DNA from: Anaerolineae bacterium
GTDB taxonomy: Bacteria > Chloroflexota > Anaerolineae > Anaerolineales > UBA4823
Length of the DNA: 64,000 nucleotides
Assembly (NCBI GenBank): GCA_041479245.1
Contig: JBGOXS010000015.1
Coordinates: 7,446-71,445 of the forward strand
Direction of reading: 5' to 3'
Shown: in pieces, positions 4,988 to 64,000 of the stretch
Numbering within the stretch: position 1 is the stretch's first letter
How the letters are laid out: every line of letters starts with the position of its first letter
Position numbers and translations under genes: made by a program
Notes under the pieces: model-generated
The model's database searches: none
What the model saw: the letters and a program-made list of their open reading frames with translations, nothing else
What the model was told of the DNA's origin: nothing

Positions 4988-7503
4988 TTCATTTGATGGC
5001 TTTCGCGAGCAATGATCTCATTCTGCAATTCACGCCCGATGGAGGTGAAGTAGGCGTTGTAACCGGTAACACGCACCAGCAGGTGGCGGTAATTCTCGGG
5101 GTTTTTCTGGGCATCGCGGAGCATGTCGGCATTGATCAGGTTTATTTGCAAGGCAGAGCCACCATTTTCGATATAGCCGAGTAGGAAGGATTTGAATTTA
5201 TCGCGGTGCTCAGGGTCACGCAGGATGGATGGATTGAAAGTCATGGTGTGGCTGCCGCCATTAGGTAGTACGTTCAGGTATTCAGCCCAATCACCGTGAC
5301 CGTCTGCAGCTTTCCCACCCAAAACCTTACCCACCGAGTTGACGTTGGCGGTCGGACCATTGTTATCGGCGCCGTTAGAGGGACAGAGCGCATTGGACAG
5401 GAATTTGCCTTGCGGACGCCCGTCTGGGCTGGCCGGCAGGATGAAGGAATCGGCCACCCAATAGTTCCAGCTTAACATCCCAGGGCGAAACTGGCGGCCA
5501 GTGGACTGCGTACGGTACTTCCAGGTTTCTTCCGTCCATAACTCCATCACCTGGCGCGCCTGATCATCGGCAGCGTCGTCGTCGCGGCCGTATTTGGGTG
5601 CTTTATGAAGGGCGCGTGCCTGCAAGACTTCATGACCCACCCAGTTATCGCGCAACGCCTGAACAAGCTCAGCCATCGTACAGAACTGGTTATCATAAAC
5701 GAGATACTTCACTGCCAGGAGTGAATCGACGGTAGTGGCATACGTGACCGCCTCGATGGTGACGTAGCCCAGCTCGGCGCCGCCCTCGTTAATATCCAGG
5801 CCCTTTTGAGCGCAGCCTTTGATCAGGCAGGATACGTAGGGTGTAGGTGCGAAGCGGGCCCGCAGGGATTCGCTCTGCTCGTAAAGCGCAACGATGCGGC
5901 GAATAATGCCGCGCGTCTGGGCAGCGTAGGCCCGCCAGAATTGATCCCAGTTTTCGAACTGGGTAGGATCGCCAGTATCTTCACCCCAACGCTTAACCTC
6001 CTCTGACTTGCCGGTCAGTGGGTCTTTGAATGGTAGAAGATCATAACCGCCGGTGAGGGTCAGCTCAACGGCTTTGAGCAGGTTCAGGTTGGCGTCCACT
6101 GTGCCAGAGCGATCATTGCCGACCATGGTATTTTCCAGGCAGCCCACCGGGGCATAATCAAAAACGTTTTGTTCGTTGATGAGCTGGGTCACTCCCGACT
6201 TTTTCGCCTGGAGCATCATCCCGGCCATCGAGCGCTCATCGAAATTGAGCAGAAAAGGCGAGCCCTGGCTGGACGCAATCATATCCACCACGCGGGTGAG
6301 AAGTTTATCGGGTGTATTGCGGTGCAAGCGCACATTAGGCTTGGGTTCAAGGATGGGTGACATCTCATCTATCACGTCCAACAGGATATAGGTGAAATCA
6401 TTAGACATATCCTGCCCTCCTTGACCCATACCCGAAATGGTAAACAGCTGCCCATAACCGGCAGTGATGCCCTGATTGCCACCGGTACGGATCAAGCCAT
6501 CGTAAGCGGTGTTGCAGTGGATCCAGAAGCATTTGAGAATTTCCTTACCGAACTCCGGGTCCATCCCCTCATCGATGGATTTTTGCCACAAGGGGAACAG
6601 GTATTGGTCCAGCCTGCCGAATGAATCACCCGGGCCGGGATAGTTCTCGTCGGCCATGACCAGCATATGGGTCAGCCACAGTGCCTGGACTGCCTCCCAA
6701 AAAGTCTGAGGAGGCTCCCAGGGCACACACAACAGGTTATCGGCCATCTGAGCCAGCTCTGCACGGCGGATGGAATCTGGCTCAATTTCAGCCAGGCGGT
6801 TACATTCACGGCAGTATGCTTCTGCCAGGTCACGTGGCAGCGTGGCCGCGATCATCATCGCCCGTAATTGACTACCCTTTTTACCGGCTTTATCGGCGCT
6901 GGAAAGGGTTGCATAAGCTCCCTCCAATTCCGCATAGATTGCTTTCCAACCCTCACGGATAATGCGCCCATAATCCGGGATGATGTGACCGGAGGTGGCG
7001 CCTGCATTACCGTAGCCATGATTATGAAACCACAACATGGCTGCTCGGCTGCCATTTGGTCCATACACCAGGCTGTCACGCTGCGTGGTTTCTTTTTCCG
7101 TCAGGCAAGCCGAGGTCATAATATTGAAACGCCCCCCGGCGAGCAAATCACCGGGCAGGATTTCTTGAGGTAGATATTTCACCATGACTTCACGGTTGAA
7201 CCAGGCGCGGCGTTCAGGCATTGACCACTTCCAGAATTCCCGATCCAGCTGCACGGGATGCGCCACCTGCTTAAAAGAAGAACGGAAAGTCTGTAGGAAC
7301 GTGTAAGTTTCAGGGACGATATAAAAGCTCAGCTCGTTATACTGGAAATCCCAGGGTGTACCTGTAGTCCAGGAAGAGTATTCATTGTTCCAGGCGCGTT
7401 TAACGCCCTGAAAATAATACTCGCGCAGCCATTGGATGCGCGAGGAGAGATTCGTGGGGGTTTTAATGGCGTAACGGGGTTGGTCGCGGATCACAGTCGC
7501 CAT
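4984..7503 (-). CDS. Glycyl-radical enzyme (PFL superfamily), substrate unknown; 1,2-eliminase-like active-site loop
   Basis: 839 aa. C-terminal glycyl-radical motif LLVRVTGYNAYF. Thiyl loop PVGCLEN (Cys-x-Glu). Coupled to an activase. Confidence 0.9.
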   Translation of the reverse strand: MATVIRDQPRYAIKTPTNLSSRIQWLREYYFQGVKRAWNNEYSSWTTGTPWDFQYNELSFYIVPETYTFLQTFRSSFKQVAHPVQLDREFWKWSMPERRAWFNREVMVKYLPQEILPGDLLAGGRFNIMTSACLTEKETTQRDSLVYGPNGSRAAMLWFHNHGYGNAGATSGHIIPDYGRIIREGWKAIYAELEGAYATLSSADKAGKKGSQLRAMMIAATLPRDLAEAYCRECNRLAEIEPDSIRRAELAQMADNLLCVPWEPPQTFWEAVQALWLTHMLVMADENYPGPGDSFGRLDQYLFPLWQKSIDEGMDPEFGKEILKCFWIHCNTAYDGLIRTGGNQGITAGYGQLFTISGMGQGGQDMSNDFTYILLDVIDEMSPILEPKPNVRLHRNTPDKLLTRVVDMIASSQGSPFLLNFDERSMAGMMLQAKKSGVTQLINEQNVFDYAPVGCLENTMVGNDRSGTVDANLNLLKAVELTLTGGYDLLPFKDPLTGKSEEVKRWGEDTGDPTQFENWDQFWRAYAAQTRGIIRRIVALYEQSESLRARFAPTPYVSCLIKGCAQKGLDINEGGAELGYVTIEAVTYATTVDSLLAVKYLVYDNQFCTMAELVQALRDNWVGHEVLQARALHKAPKYGRDDDAADDQARQVMELWTEETWKYRTQSTGRQFRPGMLSWNYWVADSFILPASPDGRPQGKFLSNALCPSNGADNNGPTANVNSVGKVLGGKAADGHGDWAEYLNVLPNGGSHTMTFNPSILRDPEHRDKFKSFLLGYIENGGSALQINLINADMLRDAQKNPENYRHLLVRVTGYNAYFTSIGRELQNEIIARESHQMK

Positions 7504-37917: not shown

Positions 37918-38290
37918 GTATTTCCACGATTATCATTCGTTAACAAGCCGTTTGAAATAGTATGTTATTTCAAACAGACCAAGTGCGATTGGTTCTTTTT
38001 CCCTTTTAGTGGCGTTCACCAGTTTCCAACCTTATTTGCCCAGTTCATCAAACATCTTGTTTTCCGATACCCATGCAGGAGAAATAAAAATCCCATGTGT
38101 AGACGTAGTCGCAACAATGGTTTTAAATTCCCTTGATGGCATATTTAGATTATCGCCCCGCTTTTCCAGCGGGTCAAGCAAATTAGTTGCGATTACGATA
38201 AAACAATGGGCAGCTCGTAAACCAGCCGCTGGGCGTTCCGCCTGGTTAACATCTCCAAGACTAATATTTTATGGGTAATAAACCAATCCA

Positions 38291-38707
38291 TCAACGGCAA
38301 CCATCATGGGCTGCAGATATAAAAATACCGTCTGCAAAACTTTCATAAATACCGACTTGCTTTTTAAACAGGCTTTTACATACTGGGCATACTAAATCAT
38401 CCTTGCGTGTTTCCCAGAACTTATACATATCAACGCCTTGTTTCTGGAGATCCTCCCCTTCTAATTGCTGTACGTTAGCAGTAGCCCTCGTAATCTCGGT
38501 AACAGCTATAACGTTTGCCCGCTCCTCACCAACATATTTACTGATCTTATTTGACACATCTCCCAGGGTAGTACCGCCCTTTAAATAAAAATCAGAAATT
38601 GCTTTTTTGATCGCACCTTTTTCTTTTTCTGTAAGATCGCGGCATGTTTCCCCTGCGTTCTTTCTCGCCCAATTAGCACCGCCAATTTTTGCTAACGACC
38701 ATCCCAT
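38291..38707 (-). pseudogene. Phage head-morphogenesis protein (Mu F / SPP1 gp7 family), C-terminal fragment
   Basis: ERANVIAVTEITRATANV...FWETRKDDLVCPVCKSL matches the MuF C-terminal core. The N-terminal two-thirds is missing. Upstream frames contain stop-interrupted remnants. Confidence 0.6.
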
Positions 38708-38869
38708 CTCATGCCTTCATAGTGCCGCTATCTTATTTTCCACCCCGCCCATGATAGGGGAGGCGTAGCGTCCCCGCCGCTTTGGCTTATGACAGACTGT
38801 ATTCCACTCGTCATTCTCAAGTTCATTTTTTTTTATTCCTATTCAGATTATTTCCACCCTCTCAATATT

Positions 38870-39619
38870 CTACGGTAATGTTCCGTCAACCTGTAATCTA
38901 TACGAAGTAACGTCGGCATAATCACGACTGAAGAAAGTTATATCGAAGGAACTTATTTGCCCAGGAGCTAAATCAGTGCTATTAACGTAAGTAAAATCAC
39001 AACCAACAACCTTGCCCAGATTGTTATACAGAGTACCTACTGGACTAACAAATTTAACACTAACCCCTTCATTATTACCAACCTGACCAATGATATCGTA
39101 CCATCCAAATGTAGTATCGTATGAGCCACTGTCGTTTAGAACTGTAAGGTTGGGTAAAGGTTGACCATCCGTAAAATAGGTCGGAGCTTCAAATTGATAA
39201 TATGCCCATCCAGAAGGGACTGGTACAGAAACCTCAAAGCATGTAATTCCCCATGCGGGTAAATAGTCCAGGTATATATAGGTGAAATCACTGTAGAGAA
39301 GTTGCCCACTGGCATTAAAAAAGTTGGCAGTGATTTTGACGAAACTCAAGTCATCGCCAGTATTATTCAGAACTTCACCTACGACATTAAGATAGTTAAT
39401 ACTATCTATATAATAAGAATCATTGGGTAGGATTTGAACCTCAGATGGATTCGAAGTTGGGGTTGGACTTGGAATAATTATTGGAGTACTTGTTTTAGTT
39501 GGGGTCAGAGTCGGTTGTTTATAAACAATGGGTATATAGGTCTGAAAGGCTAATGCTACACTTACCCAAATACCAAGCATTGCAAGCGCCAAAATGAAAA
39601 CTAAAAAGACTCTCTTCAT
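38870..39619 (-). CDS. Secreted protein with Thr/Pro linker and two FxLYD-like beta modules
   Basis: Signal/TM MKRVFLVFILALAMLGIWVSVALA and linker TPTKTSTPIIIPSPTPTSNP. Two homologous modules follow (VVGEVLNNTGDDLSFVKITANFFNASGQLLYSD / IIGQVGNNEGVSVKFVSPVGTLYNNLG). Confidence 0.65.
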   Translation of the reverse strand: MKRVFLVFILALAMLGIWVSVALAFQTYIPIVYKQPTLTPTKTSTPIIIPSPTPTSNPSEVQILPNDSYYIDSINYLNVVGEVLNNTGDDLSFVKITANFFNASGQLLYSDFTYIYLDYLPAWGITCFEVSVPVPSGWAYYQFEAPTYFTDGQPLPNLTVLNDSGSYDTTFGWYDIIGQVGNNEGVSVKFVSPVGTLYNNLGKVVGCDFTYVNSTDLAPGQISSFDITFFSRDYADVTSYRLQVDGTLP

Positions 39620-40163
39620 ATATCTCCTCCTTCTACTATGAAGTAGTTTTGGTTTTCAGGAATAATTACTTATTAATTATTTTACACCTGCACAACTTTT
39701 CTCATCCCAATGATTGTGCCTCGTATTTCACAGTCTTTTCTATGTCTACCCTACATACACATTCTTCCCATAACATTTCGACAATTTCCAGAATTGGACG
39801 GCTTTTCTTGCCTGGCACATCACTCCCTTGAAAGTAAGCAACATCTATCCACTTAGTAGAGTAACTGATGGCTTAATTAATCCATTTTTTGTAATGCTTC
39901 AACGTTCTGTTGATCAATAATAAAGTGATTTTTTTACTCATGCACAATCCATAAAAATATATATGCAGTTATTTTATCCGGCCTAACCCTCATTGTTTCT
40001 CAATAATGATATCGATCGATAACAGCAATACCCACCCACACCCATATTAATTTCGAAAAGTGTGGCATGTAATTTGCAATAAAAACTCTGTGAAAGCGGT
40101 TCATTCTAGCCCGCTAAAGCCAAGTTGAATTCACACAATGAGAGAATAAAAGGAGAGCGAATT

Positions 40164-40513: not shown

Positions 40514-40643
40514 AGCAACTTCTCCTTTATATGTTGATCTTCCTGCTAGCAGGCTGTCTTACTATCATTCTGGCATGACAGTATTGGTGATGATACGAGC
40601 GAGCCAAAAGTCCCTTCTCGAGAGGGAATGTTCTATTTTGACT

Positions 40644-40711
40644 GTTTCACGTGAAACCAGCTGGATTTGGAGCACCTTTCAACCAACAACCAAACATGTT
40701 TCACGTGAAAC
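40644..40711. promoter_or_regulatory. Two identical 14-bp perfect palindromes GTTTCACGTGAAAC, 54 bp apart
   Basis: Copies at 40644-40657 and 40698-40711, the second extending to a 16-bp palindrome. They lie upstream of the DUF1737-like gene at the right edge of the AT-rich island. Confidence 0.6.
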
Positions 40712-40829
40712 AATTTCCGATTTGCGCTATATATAATGTGTATGAGTAATAATTATGTAAGATATCATGTAATGTGAAGGGTAACAACAACTTGAAAAGA
40801 GTCAGCATATTGGTATGGAAGAATGAGAA

Positions 40830-53949: not shown

Positions 53950-55245
53950 ATGTTCACCAGTGTGCGCCTGCCCGCCACCTTCCGTGCCTTCCGGCACCGC
54001 AATTATTCGCTGTGGTTTGTGGGCCAGGGAATTTCCCTGATTGGCACGTGGATGCAAACCATGGCCCAGCAGGTGCTCGTCTACCGCCTGACTGGCTCAG
54101 CTACCTCATTGGGTATTATCAGTTTTATCGGGCTAGTGCCTCTTATCCCTCTTTCCCTGTGGAGTGGTTCGATCACTGATCGTTTTCCCAAGCGCACCAT
54201 TATTCTGATCACCCAATCGATCATGCTCATCCAGGCATTCTTGCTGGCAGCGTTGGTCTGGAGCGGAACGGTTCAAATCTGGCATGTGTACATCATGGCA
54301 TTCATCCTAGGAGCCGCTATTGCGGTGGACTTGCCTGCCAGGCAAGCCTTCACCGTGGATATGGTTGAGGGCAAGGATGATCTGACCAGTGCGATCGGCA
54401 TGAACTCAGCCATGTTCAACTCGGCACGTGCCATCGGACCCGCCCTCGCGGGGGTGCTGGTGGCAACGACCGGTGAGGGCAATGCTTTCTTCATCAACGG
54501 CTTGTCTTTTATCGCCGTCATCATCAGTCTGCTCATGATGCGTGGTTTACCGAAGCCCATACCCCATGCTGAATATGAGAGCCCAATCAAACACATGACC
54601 GGAGGCGTGCGCTTTATTCTCCAACGCCAGACCATCCTGATCTTGATCAGCCTGATCGCAGTGAGTGCGTTCCTCTCTATGCCATATAACACACTGCTGC
54701 CAGTCTTTGCGGGTGACGTCCTAAAGCTGAGCGCACGACCAACGGTGGTCTCCTTCTGCAGCTCGATCAGCTTCACCTCAGGTTGCCAGGCTCCCGAGGC
54801 CCTTCCGCTTGGAATGCTGTATTCTATGCTGGGAATCGGGGCGGTGATCGGGGCGTTAGTAGTTGCCTCGCTTCCCACAAATGCCAGGCGAGGTAAATTG
54901 CTCACCTTGGGGAACCTTGCATTCCCTCTTTTTTTGTTGATGTTCGCATTTTCAACCCAATTCGCAATTTCATTATTCTTGATGTCGTTTATCGGTTTCA
55001 GTTTCGTCTGGCAGAACGCACTCGCAAACACCTTGCTCCAGTTTGTCACCCCTGATGAGTTACGCGGCCGGGTGATGGGCGTTTATACCATGACCTTCCA
55101 GACCATGTTCAGATTGGGCGGTCTGCAAGCAGGGTTCGTTGCCGATTGGATCGGGGCTCCCCTTTCCGTTGGGATCGGTGCCGCCCTGTCCTTAGTTTAT
55201 GGAATTTTTGTAGCTGTTCGCTATCCCAAGGTCAGGCAGCTGTAA
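53950..55245 (+). CDS. MFS transporter (same subgroup as 1600-2841)
   Basis: FRHRNYSLWFVGQGISLIGTWMQ signature. The ATG directly abuts the mutS2 stop. Confidence 0.85.
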   Translation: MFTSVRLPATFRAFRHRNYSLWFVGQGISLIGTWMQTMAQQVLVYRLTGSATSLGIISFIGLVPLIPLSLWSGSITDRFPKRTIILITQSIMLIQAFLLAALVWSGTVQIWHVYIMAFILGAAIAVDLPARQAFTVDMVEGKDDLTSAIGMNSAMFNSARAIGPALAGVLVATTGEGNAFFINGLSFIAVIISLLMMRGLPKPIPHAEYESPIKHMTGGVRFILQRQTILILISLIAVSAFLSMPYNTLLPVFAGDVLKLSARPTVVSFCSSISFTSGCQAPEALPLGMLYSMLGIGAVIGALVVASLPTNARRGKLLTLGNLAFPLFLLMFAFSTQFAISLFLMSFIGFSFVWQNALANTLLQFVTPDELRGRVMGVYTMTFQTMFRLGGLQAGFVADWIGAPLSVGIGAALSLVYGIFVAVRYPKVRQL

Positions 55246-55429
55246 TTTTTTTGACGGTGATTGGTACACCATCCCTACTCGAAACACCAAGAGTGGCATT
55301 CCCAATCAAAAAACCACAAAATATGTGAGTTGACCACATCTCTTTTTGGAATTATAGATACACAGCCATTCTTGGAAGCGAAGGTGCTGATGATTTTAAC
55401 CCCTATAAGTATATTATTTAATAGTAGTC

Positions 55430-55840
55430 GTAGTAGAGCCTGTGGATATGTGTATAAGCTGATCCAGGATAACCTGACCCGCCATAGATGGGTGAGTGCT
55501 ATACGATATAAGCTGTATATAGGGGTTTTTGTGTATAAATTTATCCCCAGGCATGCGCTTGTATTAAGTGGATAAACCACCGTATTTTCCTTTCCCACAT
55601 ATCACCACCTATGAATTGGGTATGGCCAATATTTGCATCCCATATATAGGACTATAAGGATATAAAATATTTTGAGATTTGAGGAGTTATCCACAATTAT
55701 GCGGAGTTATCCACAATATTTATTGAGTTATCCACAGTTTTGTGAAGATAAAAAGTAAGATAATCTACTGGTGGATTGAATTACCCCGCTAAACTTTTGT
55801 TGGAATAAACGATCCATCTTCTAGGGAAAGTGGATTGAAA
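55430..55840. other. oriC-like DnaA-box cluster in an AT-rich ~870-bp non-coding gap
   Basis: Three perfect TTATCCACA boxes sit beside an AT-rich stretch (55641-55680). Three 1-mismatch boxes are also present: TGTGGATAT 55441-55449, TTATCCCCA 55541-55549 and AGTGGATAA 55567-55575. Confidence 0.6.
55687..55736 (+). repeat. Three perfect, same-orientation DnaA boxes (GAGTTATCCACA) at 20-21 bp spacing
   Basis: TTATCCACA at 55687-55695, 55707-55715 and 55728-55736, each preceded by GAG. Confidence 0.85.
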
Positions 55841-55955
55841 AGCCCTTAAAACCATGGGTCAATGCGTTCCCAATGCCACGAATAGCACTGCATCCTGATA
55901 AGGAAAATACGAGCACTGCCATCACACACGCACGATACCACAATTTTTTCAACAT
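55821..55955 (-). CDS. Entericidin-like small lipoprotein (44 aa)
   Basis: GGAGGAGAT RBS. MLKKLWYRACVMAVLVFSLSGC lipobox followed by SAIRGIGNALTHGFKGF, resembling the EcnA/B family. The ORF-track start at 56024 is unlikely. Confidence 0.55.
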   Translation of the reverse strand: MLKKLWYRACVMAVLVFSLSGCSAIRGIGNALTHGFKGFSIHFP

Positions 55956-56124
55956 ATCTCCTCCTTGAGGGTGGAGCCTACAATTCATCTTCGAACGTTT
56001 ATCCAAAGGGTAGGGAGTTGACAAACATAACCTGTTAGATTATTATCTAATTAGATGTATATCTAATACAGATATTTCCCGGCAGCCAAAAAAGTATCTC
56101 CTACACATAATATCATTAAATCAG

Positions 56125-57195
56125 ATGACCTCATACCAAAAACCACTCGTCCGTTGGAGCCTGGGCACAGCCTATGACCTGTTTGCCAGCCTGCACGTCC
56201 TGCACCACCCTGAACGATTCGGGCTGCGCCTCTCATGGGCAGCCGGAGTACGTTCGCGGCTGACACCATCCCAGCGCAGCGTATTGGAAGGATCTCAATG
56301 TTTATTCTTCAGTAGTCCTATTGCCTGGGTTTCGAGTTTGCCTGAGCCTCGGGATGCAGACACAGTCCTCAAAGCATTGGGGCAGATCGAACCCGCTGAT
56401 CGTTTGACCAAATTAGCTTATCATGCCGACGTTTTTCCCGAATTGTTGGAAATGCTTAGGGACGTAAAAACCAGGGGCTCCTGGAATCAAAATAATCTCG
56501 ACCAGCTGCAGAGAGATTATCCATTAAAAGAAAGCCCCCCTTCACCGGAGGAATTAGTCACCGCGTTGAACTGGTGGTCGCGTGCGGAGGAATTCGGCGA
56601 GCGCTATCTGGAGGCACTGCAGGCGTACGTTTCGGTTTTCTTCGCCGAGGAAGAACGCCGCATCAGACCATACCTCCAGCAAGCGCTGGATCGAGCCCAA
56701 CAGCTGGCAGCGTTGCTTGACTTTCCTCATCTGATATTGGAGTTATCGCAGGGCGTGAAGGTCGCCGCCTTTGAAGAAGCTGACGAAGTGATATTTGCTC
56801 CCTCGTACTGGTCCACACCATTGGTGATGTATGATAGTGTTGTTCTAAAACACTGGGTGGTGCTCTTCGGCGCCCGCCCGGCTGAGGTTGCATTGGTGCC
56901 GGGAGAGGTGATACCTGATGCCATGCTCAGAGCACTTAAGGCGCTCTCCGATCCCACCCGACTGCTCATCCTGCGTTATCTAAGCGATCAGCCTCTCACC
57001 CCTTCACAGCTGGCTAAGAAACTGCGCTTGAGAGCTCCAACCGTCACCCACCACCTGAGCGCGCTGCGCCTGGCGGGTCTGGTCTACGTCTCACTCGACG
57101 AAACAGAGGAGAAGCGCTACACCGTCAGGGAGGCGGTGGTCGCCGACACATTTGAATCCATTTACAAATTTTTAGCCATCAAGAGCGAGGGTTGA
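56125..57195 (+). CDS. ArsR-type winged-HTH regulator with a large N-terminal domain of unknown function
   Basis: C-terminal LKALSDPTRLLILRYLSDQPLTPSQLAKKLRLRAPTVTHHLSALRLAGLV is a canonical ArsR HTH. Confidence 0.8.
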   Translation: MTSYQKPLVRWSLGTAYDLFASLHVLHHPERFGLRLSWAAGVRSRLTPSQRSVLEGSQCLFFSSPIAWVSSLPEPRDADTVLKALGQIEPADRLTKLAYHADVFPELLEMLRDVKTRGSWNQNNLDQLQRDYPLKESPPSPEELVTALNWWSRAEEFGERYLEALQAYVSVFFAEEERRIRPYLQQALDRAQQLAALLDFPHLILELSQGVKVAAFEEADEVIFAPSYWSTPLVMYDSVVLKHWVVLFGARPAEVALVPGEVIPDAMLRALKALSDPTRLLILRYLSDQPLTPSQLAKKLRLRAPTVTHHLSALRLAGLVYVSLDETEEKRYTVREAVVADTFESIYKFLAIKSEG

Positions 57196-59272: not shown

Positions 59273-60220
59273 ATGTACACAAACAATCAGGACAACTCAA
59301 CGCACACGATTATAGAAAATCTTGTCCGTTACAACCTACTTGAATGGGCAAATCAATTCTATCAATCGAAGAAAATAGAAGGGGTTTCAGGGTTTACTCT
59401 TACCTTCTATAAACAGCAACTAGGGCATTTCCTGAAATATTGTGAATCGCAACTTATCACCAGTCTTGAAGAAATCACACCAAACGTTATCCGTCAATTC
59501 TTGTTATGGCATCAGGAAACAGGGCATAACCCTGGCGGTCTGCATGCTGCGTTCCGCACCATAAGGGTTTTCTTGCTATGGTACGAGAGTGAAGCTGAAC
59601 CAGAAGGTTGGAAGAACCCTATCAATAAAGTAAAAGCACCCAAAATCCCTACCAAGTTTCTCGAACCAGTTGATTTGGAGGATATATCTATCATGTTAGC
59701 CACTTGTAAAACTGGCTCATTTCTGGATTATAGAGATAAAGCATTATTATTGTTTCTCTTAGACTCAGGAGCAAGAGCAAGAGAAATTATCCAAATCGAC
59801 ATTATGGATGTAGACCTGGTTAGTGGGGCTGTATTAATACTGCGCGGTAAAGGAGCAAAGCCACGCACTGTATTCTTAGGAAAATCAAGCCGAAAGGCTC
59901 TACGAGCATATCTAAAGCGTCGTGGAGACAGTAACCCTGCTTTATGGATAACAGGTGAAGGAGAGAGGTTGGAATATGGAGGCTTACGGGGCATCTTAAC
60001 CCGAAGGGCAAAACTGGCCGATATAATAGCCCCGTGCTTACATTCTTTCAGGAGAGCATTTGCTATTAATATGTTACGCGCAGGGGTGGATGTGTTCAGC
60101 CTTCAAAAGTTAATGGGTCATTCAGACCTACAAGTGTTGCGTAGGTATCTCGCTCAAACGACTGAGGACGTTGCCCAGGCACACAGGATTGGTAGCCCGG
60201 TGGATAGGAACAATATTTGA
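59273..60220 (+). CDS. Tyrosine recombinase / phage-type integrase
   Basis: Catalytic residues in context: DSGARAREI (Arg), GKGAKPR (Lys), HSFRRAF (His-x-x-Arg), GHSDLQVLRRY (His, Tyr). RBS AGGAGG. Confidence 0.9.
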   Translation: MYTNNQDNSTHTIIENLVRYNLLEWANQFYQSKKIEGVSGFTLTFYKQQLGHFLKYCESQLITSLEEITPNVIRQFLLWHQETGHNPGGLHAAFRTIRVFLLWYESEAEPEGWKNPINKVKAPKIPTKFLEPVDLEDISIMLATCKTGSFLDYRDKALLLFLLDSGARAREIIQIDIMDVDLVSGAVLILRGKGAKPRTVFLGKSSRKALRAYLKRRGDSNPALWITGEGERLEYGGLRGILTRRAKLADIIAPCLHSFRRAFAINMLRAGVDVFSLQKLMGHSDLQVLRRYLAQTTEDVAQAHRIGSPVDRNNI

Positions 60221-60488
60221 TAATAAATTCAGGGCAGTATTATATTATCTATACCCCTGTGTAAAAGATTTTCTCAAAACAACATGGTTTATATGGTACT
60301 AGCTACCTGCTCCACGGCGTGGAAGTGAAATTACGAACATGGTTAGCAGGTAATTCATTTTCTTAGTAATTGGTCAACATTAATAAGCAAAGGAGAATTG
60401 TAGTCAACTCAATTCAACGATATTTCAATTAAGCCTCTTGCCATAAATATACAAGGTGTTCAGTAATTATTGAAACTAAGATATTGTA

Positions 60489-61100
60489 TTATGGTATAGA
60501 CTTTTCTGAAATGCGAAGGTGTTTGGCTTCTGCGAGAGTTCGCCAACCTGCTATCAAATTCTCGTCAGCAGGTTGCCAAGCAAGCAGAAACATGAAAGTG
60601 CCTTGGTTACTATACACACCAAAGGCCTTTCCAATTGGCTGTTCGTACATATTGATATAAGTACCATCGAGTTGTTTTACCAGTAATTCACTTCCTTTCT
60701 TCCTATCCGTGATTTCTAATTCAATGGTCCCCAATTGATTAGAAATCTTTTGTAGTTCGACTAAGATTTCTGTAAATCTTTGTTCGAAGTTATTGTTTGA
60801 TGCCTCTTGTATATCTCCGATGTTATTAACAGTATTGCACAAATCATTTCCAAGCGTGTTTAATAATTTCTGTGTGGTTTTATTCTCTACAATTAAGTCT
60901 TCTAAAAGTTGAGTCTCGAAAATCGCACATAATGAGATAATGCCTAAGTTATCACAAATCCTCTCTTGCGTTGCGCGAGTTGAATCCTCAGTTATCTTGT
61001 TCCTTTCCTGTAGGACCATGGATAGATAATCTAAAAGCGAATTTTGATTATTTAGAACTGATATTAATAAAGTTTTAAATCTTGTTCTTTCTTCATCCAT
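60489..61100 (-). CDS. Hypothetical protein (helical N-terminal half, beta-rich C-terminal ~70 aa)
   Basis: 203-aa ORF in AT-rich DNA. I recognise no family. Confidence 0.55.
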   Translation of the reverse strand: MDEERTRFKTLLISVLNNQNSLLDYLSMVLQERNKITEDSTRATQERICDNLGIISLCAIFETQLLEDLIVENKTTQKLLNTLGNDLCNTVNNIGDIQEASNNNFEQRFTEILVELQKISNQLGTIELEITDRKKGSELLVKQLDGTYINMYEQPIGKAFGVYSNQGTFMFLLAWQPADENLIAGWRTLAEAKHLRISEKSIP

Positions 61101-61376
61101 TTTATTGAACTTGTAACCTTATTATTCTGCTATTTAGCCAAAATACAATTCTTTTATTAAGAAATCCTATCATGCTTAGGAGAATTGGCACCACCCAAGA
61201 TTGATTATTTCTTCCTATCTCATTATATAGGAACATTTATTAATTACAACTACATTCTTTGTAATTTTACTGTAGAAGTATTCGGCGTAAGGTAAACGCG
61301 ATTATATATGGCATTAGTTTGACCAAGAAGTGAGCATGGGGGTATCAACAATTAAATATTTCTTTTCTCCTTTATC

Positions 61377-61503
61377 GGTGACCCCATAGGGCACCGTCTG
61401 GGTAGGGGAGAGCGGGATGCAGGCAGCCGTGCAGCTTGTTTCCCGTGTCATTTAGCACGGCCTATCCAAGAGCCCGCCTCTCATACGAGAGACGGGCTCT
61501 TTT
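61377..61503 (+). ncRNA. GC-rich structured leader RNA candidate ending in an intrinsic terminator
   Basis: This GC-rich patch sits in AT-rich DNA. Hairpin GGTGaCCC-CATA-GGGCACC (61377-61395). Helix CCGTGC/GCACGG (61427-32 / 61455-60). Terminator AGAGCCCGcCTCTC-ATAC-GAGAGaCGGGCTCT + TTT (61469-61503). An alternative pairing joins GAGAGCGGG (61408-16) with the terminator 5' arm. Confidence 0.4.
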
Positions 61504-61528
61504 GATTCTATGAATATTGGAGGTCAAT

Positions 61529-61834
61529 ATGTTCAAGGTTCGTGTTTTATCAAAGTGCCAGCACTGCAATGGCGAGGCATATTTACCCATCGAGGAGTGC
61601 GAAGATAGTCATGGTAAAACCTATATTCGCTATGCTCCTTGCCCGACCTGCGAAGGTAGTGGCAGCCAGCCCCAGTGGGTTGACCTTGAGGACTTCGCCA
61701 AGTTATTACATCAAGCAGATTGCGCGCATGAGCATACCTCTTACCAGGGCAATATGCGCTTCATCGCAGGTGATGTGTGGGATGACCTGCAAGAGGTCTG
61801 CGACGATTGCGGCGCTGACCTTGATAAACACTAA
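61529..61834 (+). CDS. Small zinc-finger protein with DnaJ-type CxxCxGxG motif
   Basis: GGAGG RBS. 101 aa with CQHCNGEA, CPTCEGSG and CDDCG motifs. Confidence 0.6.
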   Translation: MFKVRVLSKCQHCNGEAYLPIEECEDSHGKTYIRYAPCPTCEGSGSQPQWVDLEDFAKLLHQADCAHEHTSYQGNMRFIAGDVWDDLQEVCDDCGADLDKH

Positions 61835-61914
61835 ATCATCGCCCAAATCAATGGAGTGCCTCTCAAATGGCAGGGAGGCACTCAACTTTTATGTTCAGAA
61901 AGGATATATTTTTG

Positions 61915-62331
61915 ATGAACGCCAATAACAACAATCACAAAAATAGTACCAAAGTCAACGAGCTGAGTTTTGAAGAAGCACCCGCAAGCTGGAATACCAA
62001 ATATCTTTCCCCAGAAGGATTTGAATGTATGCTCACTTTACGCGCGGAAAATGGCTCAGATTTATTAGAGAGAGCTGCCAATGCTGTCGCCTATTTACTT
62101 GCCAATGCCTGCATACCTTCAGTCTATTACCACAATGGAGTACGTCCAGCAGATAACAAAACTAGTGAGCATAAGAAAAGCGAAGGAGCAAGTAATGGTA
62201 ATGGCAACTTCGAGAATGGTTCTTCACCCTCGTGGTGCCCCATCCATCAAGCGGAGATGAAAGCGTGGTCTAAAGAGGGCAAGGTCTGGTATAGCCACAA
62301 AGTCGATGGCAAATGGTGCCGCGGTAAATAA
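61915..62331 (+). CDS. Hypothetical protein with C-terminal CPxH...WC zinc-knuckle
   Basis: 138 aa from MNANNNNHK. The C-terminus reads SWCPIHQAEMKAWSKEGKVWYSHKVDGKWCRGK. The start is uncertain (ORF track gives 61867). Confidence 0.55.
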   Translation: MNANNNNHKNSTKVNELSFEEAPASWNTKYLSPEGFECMLTLRAENGSDLLERAANAVAYLLANACIPSVYYHNGVRPADNKTSEHKKSEGASNGNGNFENGSSPSWCPIHQAEMKAWSKEGKVWYSHKVDGKWCRGK

Positions 62332-62338
62332 GTGTGCC

Positions 62339-62542
62339 ATGACCAATAACCCTGCTCCAAAGGCCCGTGTGCTGAAAGTCAGTGAAACGGGTGACTTCTA
62401 CCACAAGCATACCTGGCCATATCTACGTCTGATGGGTATATGGTTGGCAAAGGCGGGTATCATTGCCAACCGTCGCGTCCGGGTAGAAAATCCAGAACCA
62501 GGTTTGCTCATCATCTGCTTGGTAGATGAGCAAAGCGATTAG
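62339..62542 (+). CDS. SymE-like / AbrB-fold small protein (67 aa)
   Basis: PYLRLMGIWLAKAGIIANRRVRVENPEPGLLIICLV fits the SymE-family pattern (P-x-L-x-L-x-G-x-WL-x-x-AG...V-x-V...L-x-I). The ATG lies 8 nt after the upstream stop. Confidence 0.5.
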   Translation: MTNNPAPKARVLKVSETGDFYHKHTWPYLRLMGIWLAKAGIIANRRVRVENPEPGLLIICLVDEQSD

Positions 62543-62555
62543 TTCGCTATTCCAA

Positions 62556-62597
62556 CCACCCCCATAGCCTGGATTTCTATGGGGGTGGATTATTTCT
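62556..62597 (+). terminator. Hairpin terminator after the SymE-like gene
   Basis: 11-bp stem CCACCCCCATA / TATGGGGGTGG followed by a weak T-tract ATTATTTCT. Confidence 0.5.
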
Positions 62598-62613
62598 ATA
62601 AAGGAGGTATGTA

Positions 62614-62814
62614 ATGGGCGCGGTCAAGTCGTTTGCCATGTGGCTAGCAGAACGGGTATATTTAAGTCGATGGTCTGATGAGGAAATCATAACCAATGTC
62701 AAGAGCCAATATCCAGATTTTCAACGAGCCAGAATATTGGATTGGCTTCGTATTCAGATACAGACAGTCAGGGAAAATCCTGACTTATATCAAGTAATAA
62801 TTATGCAGAAATAG
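62614..62814 (+). CDS. Hypothetical small protein (66 aa)
   Basis: AAAGGAGG RBS. No recognisable family. Confidence 0.5.
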   Translation: MGAVKSFAMWLAERVYLSRWSDEEIITNVKSQYPDFQRARILDWLRIQIQTVRENPDLYQVIIMQK

Positions 62815-63060
62815 GAGAAAATCTCATAAATTAATTGATGTAGGCGAACTATCATTAGGTTTATAAATATCGAAGCACACACTGCGTGACAAATTGGGGG
62901 GAGTTATATCCTTTCCCCCCTTAGTCACCTTCAAGATTCAGACATATAATAATAACCATACACTTTCCATACATGGTAATAATAACCAACTAAAGAAGTA
63001 GCTGGAGATAATTATGCAGCAAAACTTTATCCAGCTCCCAATTTAGATAGAGGATATATT

Positions 63061-63483
63061 ATGAACGTTCCTGATTTATTGAAGAATCTTAGCTTGGATA
63101 AATGGTATAAGGTTGTTATATATCTCGGGGTGATATTACTAATTATTTCACTTGTTGTAGAAATAAAAGTCATAAATAATAAGCAATTACTTTTCCTATC
63201 CCTTGGTTTTCTCTTTGGAGGCGTTGGAGAATGGATAAATCATAGAAAAGATACCGTTATCAAACCTCCTAACGCATATACTGGTCCGACAATGTTGATT
63301 GAATTTGAAGTATGGAAACCTAAATTGATTGGTGTAATTTTCGATATTATTGGAATAGGCCTATTAGCTTTTAGTTTGTATTGGATTTTAAATCCAACCA
63401 TACAGAGTTTCCTGGGAATACCAGTGCCATCTCTCATATCGACGTTAGCAACACCCATATCTACTCCTTCTCCTATACCCTAA
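63061..63483 (+). CDS. Hypothetical membrane protein (3 TM) with Pro/Ser/Thr tail
   Basis: 140 aa. It ends 15 nt before the Mod-like gene. Confidence 0.55.
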   Translation: MNVPDLLKNLSLDKWYKVVIYLGVILLIISLVVEIKVINNKQLLFLSLGFLFGGVGEWINHRKDTVIKPPNAYTGPTMLIEFEVWKPKLIGVIFDIIGIGLLAFSLYWILNPTIQSFLGIPVPSLISTLATPISTPSPIP

Positions 63484-63498
63484 TATAAGGTCTACATT

Positions 63499-64000
63499 AT
63501 GCCAACTTTGAACTGGATTGGAAAATCCGCTGTAGTTGAACACCATAAGGAAGTACCCTTCCACCTTTTGCGTAGTAACTCAGAACTATCATTAGGTGAC
63601 TCGGGCAACGGGAACATGCTCATCCAAGGCGATAATCTTATCGCTTTGAAAGCTCTTCTTCCCTATTATGCTGGTCAAGTCAAATGTATTTATATAGACC
63701 CGCCGTACAATACGGGTAATGAAAATTGGGTTTACAACGATGCTGTCAACAGCCCTGAGATGCGAGATTGGTTAGGTAAAGTAGTTGGGGGTGAAGCGGA
63801 GGATTTATCAAGGCATGATAAATGGTTATGTATGATGTATCCACGCCTAGTGCTATTAAGAGAAATGTTGAGAGAAGATGGTGCAATATTTATAAGCATT
63901 GACGATACCGAAATGAGTAATCTGCATTTAATTATGGATGAGGTATTTGGAGGTAATAATTTTGTTGAATGTATTACCTGGAATAAACGTATACCTAAAA
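63499..64000 (+). CDS. Type III restriction-modification Mod-like N6-adenine DNA methyltransferase, N-terminal part (runs off window)
   Basis: MPTLNWIGK...LIQGDNLIALKALLPYYAGQVKCIYIDPPYNTGNE (motif IV DPPY)...DGAIFISIDD. Confidence 0.8.
   Translation, partial: MPTLNWIGKSAVVEHHKEVPFHLLRSNSELSLGDSGNGNMLIQGDNLIALKALLPYYAGQVKCIYIDPPYNTGNENWVYNDAVNSPEMRDWLGKVVGGEAEDLSRHDKWLCMMYPRLVLLREMLREDGAIFISIDDTEMSNLHLIMDEVFGGNNFVECITWNKRIPK

Follow-up and report, generated by a model that had tools for sequence, protein, structure and literature searches.

An intergenic stretch in the genome of an uncultured Anaerolineales bacterium, at positions 55391 to 55769 of the 64,000-nucleotide stretch of DNA that we analyzed (referred to here as the window), is very probably the chromosomal origin of replication (oriC) of this organism (probability, about 0.9). 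An initial annotation had proposed a replication origin in a noncanonical position, and we uphold that proposal because the locus contains a complete DnaA-trio module, is conserved as a single copy across the order, has parS sites nearby, has homologs adjacent to dnaA in two families, and has a homolog near the GC skew switch of a relative (i.e., G023). The sequence anatomy, the conservation, the single-copy status, and the chromosomal position on which this reading is based were all observed directly. The origin is of an ordinary kind, with a standard DnaA-driven unwinding module, but is separated from dnaA.

Clustering of DnaA boxes

The window represents positions 7,446 to 71,445 of a 72-kb contig from an assembly of 87 contigs (2.75 Mb; 72.7% complete). 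We scanned it for the DnaA-box consensus TTATCCACA, counting all sites with at most one mismatch. Both the scan and direct reading of the sequence reproduced the reported set of three perfect same-strand boxes, which share a 12-mer and are spaced by 20 to 21 bp. In the preceding 300 bp, for which at least three one-mismatch boxes in both orientations had been claimed, the scan counted five. The boxes of the locus and the sequence that follows them are as follows.

55441 and 55449, minus strand, two one-mismatch boxes (the tandem pair of the unwinding module)
55530, minus strand, one-mismatch middle box TTATACACA
55541, plus strand, one-mismatch middle box TTATCCCCA
55567, minus strand, one-mismatch middle box TTATCCACT (the three middle boxes span 55530 to 55575)
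55687 to 55695, 55707 to 55715, and 55728 to 55736, plus strand, three perfect boxes TTATCCACA (the triple array)
55737 to 55769, tail after the third perfect box, GTTTTGTGAAGATAAAAAGTAAGATAATCTACT, conserved in the alignment
55999, plus strand, one-mismatch box

Each of the perfect boxes is preceded by GAG and lies inside the 12-mer GAGTTATCCACA. Successive starts are separated by 20 and 21 bp (i.e., two helical turns), which places all three on one face of the helix, and the array at 55687 to 55736 is a predicted high-affinity loading array for DnaA. Three relatives (i.e., G009, G010, and G011) have a perfect TTATCCACA at the box that corresponds to 55567, the TCCCCA and GTGGATAA blocks around the middle boxes are conserved in relatives, and the tail region of G009 carries an additional reverse box, TGTGGATAT.

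The window contains 29 boxes with at most one mismatch, compared with 14.5 ± 3.8 in shuffled sequences, and none of 100 shuffles reached 29. Three of the 44 perfect boxes in the 2.75-Mb assembly fall inside these 50 bp, the sole spot in the assembly where three perfect boxes occur together. The locus is also the densest cluster in the assembly, with 9 boxes in 560 bp versus 4 for the runner-up (600-bp windows). A DnaA-box cluster above chance, one of the marks of an oriC, is thus present.

Architecture of the unwinding module

The left side of the cluster carries a module, not described in the initial annotation, with the organization of the basal unwinding system (BUS), which was defined in Bacillus subtilis and which bioinformatic analysis has identified in 85% of predicted origins (PMC6669920; PMC8287927). 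From 55391, the plus strand reads TGATTTTAACCCCTATAAGTATATTATTTAA, TAG TAG TCG TAG TAG, AGCC, and TGTGGATAT GTGTATAA; on the minus strand, the order is box, box, GGCT, CTACTACGACTACTA, and the AT-rich sequence. The elements of the module (55391 to 55457), and a second AT-rich tract to its right, are listed below.

55391 to 55421, AT-rich tract TGATTTTAACCCCTATAAGTATATTATTTAA, the predicted duplex-unwinding element, just distal to the DnaA-trios
55422 to 55436, plus strand, DnaA-trio array TAG TAG TCG TAG TAG (3'-GAT-5' repeats on this strand)
55437 to 55440, AGCC, a 4-nt spacer that separates the trios from the tandem boxes and is placed where the BUS has its "GC-rich region"
55441 to 55457, minus strand, tandem DnaA boxes TGTGGATATGTGTATAA, composed of ATATCCACA (55441 to 55449) and TTATACACA (55449 to 55457), which share one base and point toward the trios
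55641 to 55680, second AT-rich tract, adjoining the triple array and without adjoining trios

The published BUS rule asks for a DnaA box with no more than two mismatches, an optional tandem box, and at least three trios with a central adenine within 16 bp on the correct strand (PMC8287927). Read 3' to 5' off the box, the trios of the present module are GAT GAT GCT GAT GAT AAT, in keeping with this definition: the run is broken by a single GCT, the flanking NAN runs consist of two and three trios, and the three-trio run begins 13 nt from the nearer box. The last of these trios corresponds to an in-frame TAA at 55419 to 55421, which lengthens the array to six trios, (TAA)TAGTAGTCGTAGTAG. The third trio (TCG) has C in its middle position and departs from the middle-adenine rule of PMC8287927. 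The supplement of that study writes the BUS 3' to 5', as AATAGGTGT, a second box, a spacer, and GAT GAT repeats (the Deinococcus entry, for instance, begins AATAGGTGT CAAAGGTGT CGGG AATGATAATGAT). In the same notation, the module described here reads AATATGTGT ATAGGTGT CCGA GATGATGCTGATGAT AAT, and the orientation of its trios relative to its boxes agrees with the BUS table.

The spacer, which is GGGC, GGCC, or AGCC in relatives, can be compared with an average BUS spacer of 4 bp (PMC8287927). Each of the tandem boxes has one mismatch in this genome; the pair in relatives is TGTGGATATGTGGATAA, which is perfectly conserved in G009, G039, G069, and G052. A composite BUS motif (at most one mismatch in the trios and one in the box) is unique to this locus in the assembly. 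A looser composite scan (up to three to five mismatches in the trios and two to three in the box) gave no enrichment over a reversed-genome control, and therefore only the stringent match was counted.

A candidate for the adjacent AT-rich unwinding element, another mark of an oriC, is found by sequence on both sides of the middle boxes, given that the 30-mers at 55404 to 55433 and 55642 to 55671 are both among the least stable 1% in the window. The former is 80% AT, with a ΔG of −29.0 compared with a window mean of −41.3 ± 3.8, and the latter is 83% AT, with a ΔG of −28.2. The initial annotation had placed the unwinding element at 55641 to 55680. The AT richness of that tract is real, but the trios adjoin only the AT-rich tract on the left side of the cluster, and the unwinding site is therefore likely to be 55391 to 55436. 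An AT-rich tract is present at this position in all aligned relatives. The ATAAAATATTTTGA sequence of the second tract is kept within the genus and not in family f13; this tract may be a site for an architectural protein or an auxiliary, easily melted region.

Conservation across the genus and the order

An 871-bp query covering the locus was matched in 20 of 21 further same-genus genomes, and other families of the order gave weaker matches. The loci of the genus share the three-box array with its 20- and 21-bp spacing, a reverse box approximately 120 bp upstream, and a tandem reverse pair approximately 240 bp upstream. The triple array, with the same spacing, was present in all genus loci that were fetched and also in families f16 and f13, and the equivalent position in G037, G027, G086, and G023 is occupied by two boxes at a 21-bp spacing. 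We aligned 11 loci from three families, including two genera of family f1. In this alignment, the trios and spacer, the tandem and middle boxes, and the triple array stand out as invariant islands, and the sequence between them drifts. Conservation of the trio array extends to families f1, f16, and f13 and to genus g3. The TCG sequence occurs at the third trio in most of genus g1, and f16 has three TCG trios.

A core motif, TAGTAG-N4-TGTGGATAnGTGGATA, was found with up to three mismatches in 125 of 251 sampled Anaerolineales genomes, representing 15 of 18 families and occurring almost always once per genome, whereas a reversed control pattern gave approximately 13 matches in total. The module thus has the distribution that an oriC should have (i.e., one per chromosome and conserved in relatives).

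Three phased boxes alone are not diagnostic of an origin because relatives also carry arrays linked to a DUF92 gene. In four genomes (G023, G090, G114, and G093), an equally perfect triple array occupies a gap of approximately 70 bp, with the gene for a DUF92 membrane protein immediately downstream and with no AT-rich or trio element. The BUS core motif is on contigs other than that of the DUF92 array in G090 and G093 and is 357 kb away in G114. The exact triple-box pattern was consequently rejected as an origin marker, since it also marks the DUF92 locus, which has no BUS or unwinding element, in these genomes.

These separate and clearly non-origin arrays indicate that phased triplets have other uses in the order, and they lend some weight to an alternative raised in the initial annotation, in which the locus would be datA-like or DARS-like, binding DnaA to regulate initiation without itself firing. 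The presence of a high-affinity box cluster away from dnaA is also compatible with that role. However, datA and DARS loci are devoid of a trio and unwinding module, and a complete one is present here; the same module adjoins dnaA in families f4 and f14; neither the assembly nor the surroundings of dnaA and dnaN in relatives yielded another candidate cluster; and the parS and skew evidence described below favors this locus as the origin. We therefore consider a datA-like or DARS-like role very unlikely and retain the assignment as an oriC.

Gene neighborhood and other readings of the gap

The gap is flanked by the following genes and contains one short open reading frame (ORF).

53950 to 55245, MFS transporter gene, left flank
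55821 to 55955, minus strand, ORF for a lipoprotein-like product of 44 aa, with AGGAGG as its ribosome-binding site
56125 to 57195, gene for a 356-aa ArsR-HTH protein, right flank

Further out, mutS2 lies beyond the left flank and a second MFS gene beyond the right. The gap had been described as free of any credible long ORF. The 104-aa and 107-aa ORFs that overlap the box cluster had no Pfam match. The gap is not wholly noncoding, however, in view of the 44-aa ORF. Because this ORF occupies 55821 to 55955, the strictly intergenic stretch shrinks to approximately 55246 to 55820, which is bounded by two convergent genes. No Pfam match was obtained for the 44-aa lipoprotein at E values up to 0.01, and its assignment to the entericidin family was rejected on this ground. 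A coding reading of the cluster was rejected as well, given the absence of Pfam matches and an alignment that consists of motif islands without codon-like conservation. We likewise rejected an ncRNA reading, as an Rfam search of the locus returned no family at E values up to 1. The window also includes an integrase gene (59273 to 60220), which prompted us to consider the origin of a mobile element or plasmid; this candidate was rejected in view of the order-wide chromosomal conservation and the surrounding housekeeping genes (i.e., metG, a sigma-70 factor gene, and mutS2). A search for NrdR boxes in the origin gave a single degenerate site at 55711 to 55728 (3 to 4 mismatches in 16 positions) and thus did not confirm such boxes.

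The cluster might instead be a DnaA-controlled promoter or regulatory region of a neighboring gene, namely the 44-aa lipoprotein ORF, the gene for the ArsR-type regulator, or a gene for an antisense RNA. A weak sigma-70-like match on the plus strand (55672 to 55700) overlaps the first perfect box, and DnaA boxes regulate promoters elsewhere, as in G027, where dnaA has a triple array upstream of it. However, promoter-like matches are no more common here than in shuffled sequences, and the cluster lies downstream of both convergent flanking genes, an arrangement in which no promoter is needed. The ArsR gene already has a strong promoter of its own, located at 56018 to 56046 with 11 of 12 matches, together with palindromic operators within 56018 to 56075. 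Regulation of a neighboring gene would also leave unexplained both the trios and a conservation that extends across the order despite differing neighbors. A promoter function is thus extremely improbable as an account of the locus, and the features of the gap are better read as those of an origin.

Position relative to dnaA, dnaN, and parS

Neither dnaA nor dnaN was found within the 64-kb window, as the initial annotation had stated. In the assembly (72.7% complete), dnaN is located on contig C30, where its upstream region contains just two imperfect boxes; no dnaA was detected, most likely owing to incompleteness. It is conceivable that a second, better cluster of this genome lies on the DNA missing from the assembly.

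The homologous module is next to dnaA in two other families. In G037 (family f14; a single contig), dnaA occupies 4,313,827 to 4,315,137 on the minus strand, and the core motif lies at 4,313,391. G027 and G086 (family f4) have the same layout, with the module approximately 0.4 kb past the 3' end of dnaA. In these three genomes, the BUS is followed by a reverse box at approximately +125 and two perfect plus-strand boxes 21 bp apart at approximately +290; the 3' end of dnaA comes next. This polarity, with the boxes near dnaA and the trios pointing away from it, is that of the B. subtilis incC arrangement. The distance between the module and dnaA is 114 to 219 kb in G061, G100, G046, and G039 (families f7 and f16), 895 kb in G015, which belongs to the genus of the window, and 1.07 Mb in G252; it ranges from 0.9 to 1.07 Mb in f1 and one genus of f7. 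No box cluster was present in the dnaA flanks of five relatives.

parS sites are origin-proximal markers. The window contains one pair.

40643 to 40712, parS pair composed of TGTTTCACGTGAAACC (40643 to 40658) and a perfect TGTTTCACGTGAAACA (40697 to 40712), 15 kb from the DnaA-box cluster

These two sites are the only parS matches with at most two mismatches in the 2.75-Mb assembly, which also encodes ParB (contig C7). The distance between parS and the module is 21 kb in G010, 25 kb in G015, 17 kb in G023, and 6 kb in G039, and no further parS was found in the 300 to 560 kb examined around each of these modules. A nearby parS, which is typical of an oriC without being obligatory, is thus a feature of this locus.

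GC skew and gene orientation

No switch could be resolved on the 72-kb contig that includes the window, given its short length and its weak GC skew and strand bias. GC skew is weak throughout the genus (replication term, approximately 0.01 to 0.02), and step fits in G010 and G015 gave broad intervals. The minimum of cumulative gene orientation is 16 kb from the module in G010 and 21 kb in G015, two genomes in which skew is weak.

G023, a member of the same family (genus g3), has a strong skew with one minus-to-plus switch on its 2.75-Mb contig, at approximately 695 to 780 kb. Negative skew extends from 1 to approximately 700 kb, values close to zero from 700 to 780 kb, and positive skew from approximately 780 kb to 2.63 Mb. 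The module of this genome is at 783.0 to 783.3 kb; the skew reaches its cumulative minimum 49 kb away, at 734 kb, and the best step fit is 88 kb away, at 695 kb. The dnaN gene, at 1864 kb, is within uniformly positive skew with no switch, and the dnaA contig (190 kb) has uniformly positive skew and no box cluster. For G039, a complete genome of which 800 kb was sampled, there is no local switch at the module (166 kb), the cumulative minimum is approximately 310 kb away, and the origin side is flat. A plus-to-minus, terminus-like switch occurs in this genome at approximately 1.47 Mb, and its antipode, at approximately 0.18 Mb, agrees with the position of the module; step fits were uninformative.

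The flat skew at the G039 module and the great distance to dnaA in the genus (e.g., the 895 kb in G015) could also be expected if the locus were a relic, that is, an ancestral oriC now unused in a chromosome whose replication begins elsewhere, such as near a relocated dnaA. An unused origin would decay, yet the boxes, the spacer, and the trios are clearly constrained across genera and families. The places where a replacement might be sought also argue against a relic, as the five dnaA flanks mentioned above have no box cluster and the dnaA contig of G023 has no skew switch. We consider it highly improbable that the locus has fallen out of use, and we treat it below as the probable active origin.

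Proposed mode of initiation

DnaA binding, the place of unwinding, and the part played by the triple array are predicted by analogy with the B. subtilis BUS (PMC6669920, PMC8287927). DnaA-ATP would fill the three phased high-affinity boxes (55687 to 55736), the middle boxes, and the tandem pair at 55441 to 55457. From the tandem pair, a DnaA oligomer (i.e., an ATP-DnaA filament) would spread onto the trio strand at 55419 to 55436, and the filament would stretch and open the AT-rich tract at approximately 55391 to 55421. The replicative helicase would then be loaded at the opened tract, and replication would proceed bidirectionally. The triple array, 230 to 280 bp away, probably concentrates DnaA locally at the module by looping or oligomerization; the distal incC boxes of B. 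subtilis act through a loop (PMC6669920).

Implications

Origins located away from dnaA are already well known, and a literature search of limited scope found no paper describing an origin from Anaerolineae. The present assignment would fix the origin for a genus, and by homology for much of an order, of abundant uncultured Chloroflexota, in whose genomes dnaA is unusable as an origin landmark. It could serve in estimating growth rates from metagenome coverage (peak-to-trough ratio), in orienting and closing MAGs, and in correcting database origin calls. The module also provides a well-conserved natural example of the BUS from an undersampled phylum, with a recurrent noncanonical TCG trio and a strictly phased three-box array. 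As a more tentative proposal, on which we would not insist, the Anaerolineales origin may be a single module that became uncoupled from dnaA several times within one order, with a DnaA that tolerates or prefers trios lacking a central adenine.

Comparison with known systems

Like the predictions in DoriC and Ori-Finder, including that for Anaerolinea thermophila UNI-1 (ORI94030346), the present assignment is a computational call from a box cluster and compositional asymmetry. The BUS tabulated for A. thermophila UNI-1 in the supplement of PMC8287927 is weak (a box with 2 mismatches, a 16-nt spacer, and a score of 7) and does not resemble the sharply defined core motif that recurs across the order.

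The datA, DARS1, and DARS2 loci of Escherichia coli resemble the locus in being DnaA-box clusters away from dnaA. Those loci, however, have neither a trio array nor an unwinding element and are not the densest clusters of their genome, and none of them is an order-wide single-copy module that adjoins dnaA in some lineages, as is the case here.

The E. coli oriC (between gidA and mioC, with a DUE and boxes R1 to R4) is likewise unlinked to dnaA, although the gene is only approximately 42 kb away in that genome. Both loci have the unwinding element outside the left-most box and have opposed boxes, with TGTGGATAA on the left and TTATCCACA on the right of the same strand. The context of the E. coli R4 box, GAGTTATCCACAG, is identical to the 12-mer of the triple array. 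Unlike the E. coli origin, the present locus has no 13-mer repeats and no clustering of GATC.

The closest described system is the incC region and BUS of the B. subtilis oriC, with DnaA-box#6 and DnaA-box#7, a GC cluster, DnaA-trios, and an AT-rich 27-mer (PMC6669920, PMC8287927). The locus differs from it in that the module is not beside dnaA or dnaN in this genome and genus, forms one continuous unit of approximately 380 bp rather than two parts flanking dnaA, includes one TCG trio, and has its distal boxes in a strict three-box array at two-turn spacing. The two systems nevertheless share tandem boxes, a 4-nt spacer, five to six 3'-GAT-5' trios, and an AT-rich tract, in the same order and orientation, and both have distal upstream boxes; in families f4 and f14, moreover, the module is just downstream of dnaA, as incC is in B. 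subtilis.

Sequence variation inside the probable origin

The third DnaA-trio of the origin (positions 55428-55430 of the window) reads TCG, so that C replaces the central A regarded as invariant. Alignment of the loci showed that this TCG is kept in most genomes of the genus and in G023, a member of the same family but of genus g3, and that in family f16 three of five trio positions carry TCG; in two other Anaerolineales genomes, G018 and G011, the third-trio position is TAG. In the triple array of perfect DnaA boxes, boxes 2 and 3 are separated by a spacer, CACAATATTTATTGAG (55711-55728), that most of the genus keeps unchanged, which is not so for the spacer between boxes 1 and 2. The invariant spacer matches the NrdR-box consensus weakly, with 3 to 4 mismatches in 16 positions.

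Features surrounding the probable origin

The following noncoding sites and small open reading frame (ORF) were located in the window:

40643-40712, intergenic: a parS pair, sites TGTTTCACGTGAAACC and perfect TGTTTCACGTGAAACA, 54 bp apart
55821-55955, - strand: a 44-aa ORF, MLKKLWYRACVMAVLVFSLSGCSAIRGIGNALTHGFKGFSIHFP; its ribosome-binding site reads AGGAGG, and its product contains a lipobox (LSGC)
56018-56075: a strong sigma-70-like promoter (TTGACA-17-TATTAT) serving the ArsR-HTH gene

The 44-aa ORF, whose 3' end faces the origin, had no Pfam match at E values up to 0.01, and its predicted product resembles an entericidin-type small lipoprotein. The promoter of the ArsR-HTH gene (i.e., the gene for a 356-aa protein that flanks the origin gap) overlaps two palindromes, TTAGATTATTATCTAA and TTAGATGTATATCTAA; both probably serve as operators for autoregulation. 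The palindrome is kept in several relatives, and the DNA search matched it on both strands.

A scan of the whole assembly found no parS sites beyond the pair in the window. The parB gene lies on contig C7 and does not adjoin the pair; the ORFs beside the pair (249 and 337 aa) had no Pfam match. Two stretches of the window (38000-40000 and 60000-64000) have a low GC content (~0.40, versus ~0.52 window-wide). A tyrosine integrase gene (59273-60220) precedes the second stretch, which is therefore probably a genomic island, located ~3.5 kb from the origin.

Other DnaA-box clusters and comparison with a database origin

A second class of triple array, in which three perfect DnaA boxes are spaced 21 bp apart, was found in G023 (contig C12, 724102-724152) and at loci L096 (G090), L097 (G114), and L098 (G093). 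These arrays occupy a gap of ~70 bp, ~20 nt before the start codon of a gene for a DUF92 integral membrane protein, and no AT-rich or trio element was found at any of the four. This class is distinct from oriC; it may be a promoter under DnaA control or a reservoir of DnaA. In the assembly containing the window (GCA_041479245.1), the second-densest cluster (contig C17, 39556-39608) packs four DnaA boxes, one perfect and three with one mismatch, into 53 bp upstream of a - strand gene, possibly as a DnaA-regulated promoter.

In G027, three perfect and three one-mismatch boxes (L103; contig C117, 10440-10490) lie ~550 bp upstream of dnaA, and the basal unwinding system (BUS) module lies downstream of it. 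This upstream cluster may serve in dnaA autoregulation or form the other half of a bipartite origin of the Bacillus type. The DoriC origin of Anaerolinea thermophila UNI-1 (NC_014960) yielded a poor BUS, having a box with 2 mismatches, a 16-nt spacer, and a score of 7 (supplementary table, PMC8287927). Given the sharp core motif conserved throughout the order, the DoriC origin of A. thermophila may be misplaced.
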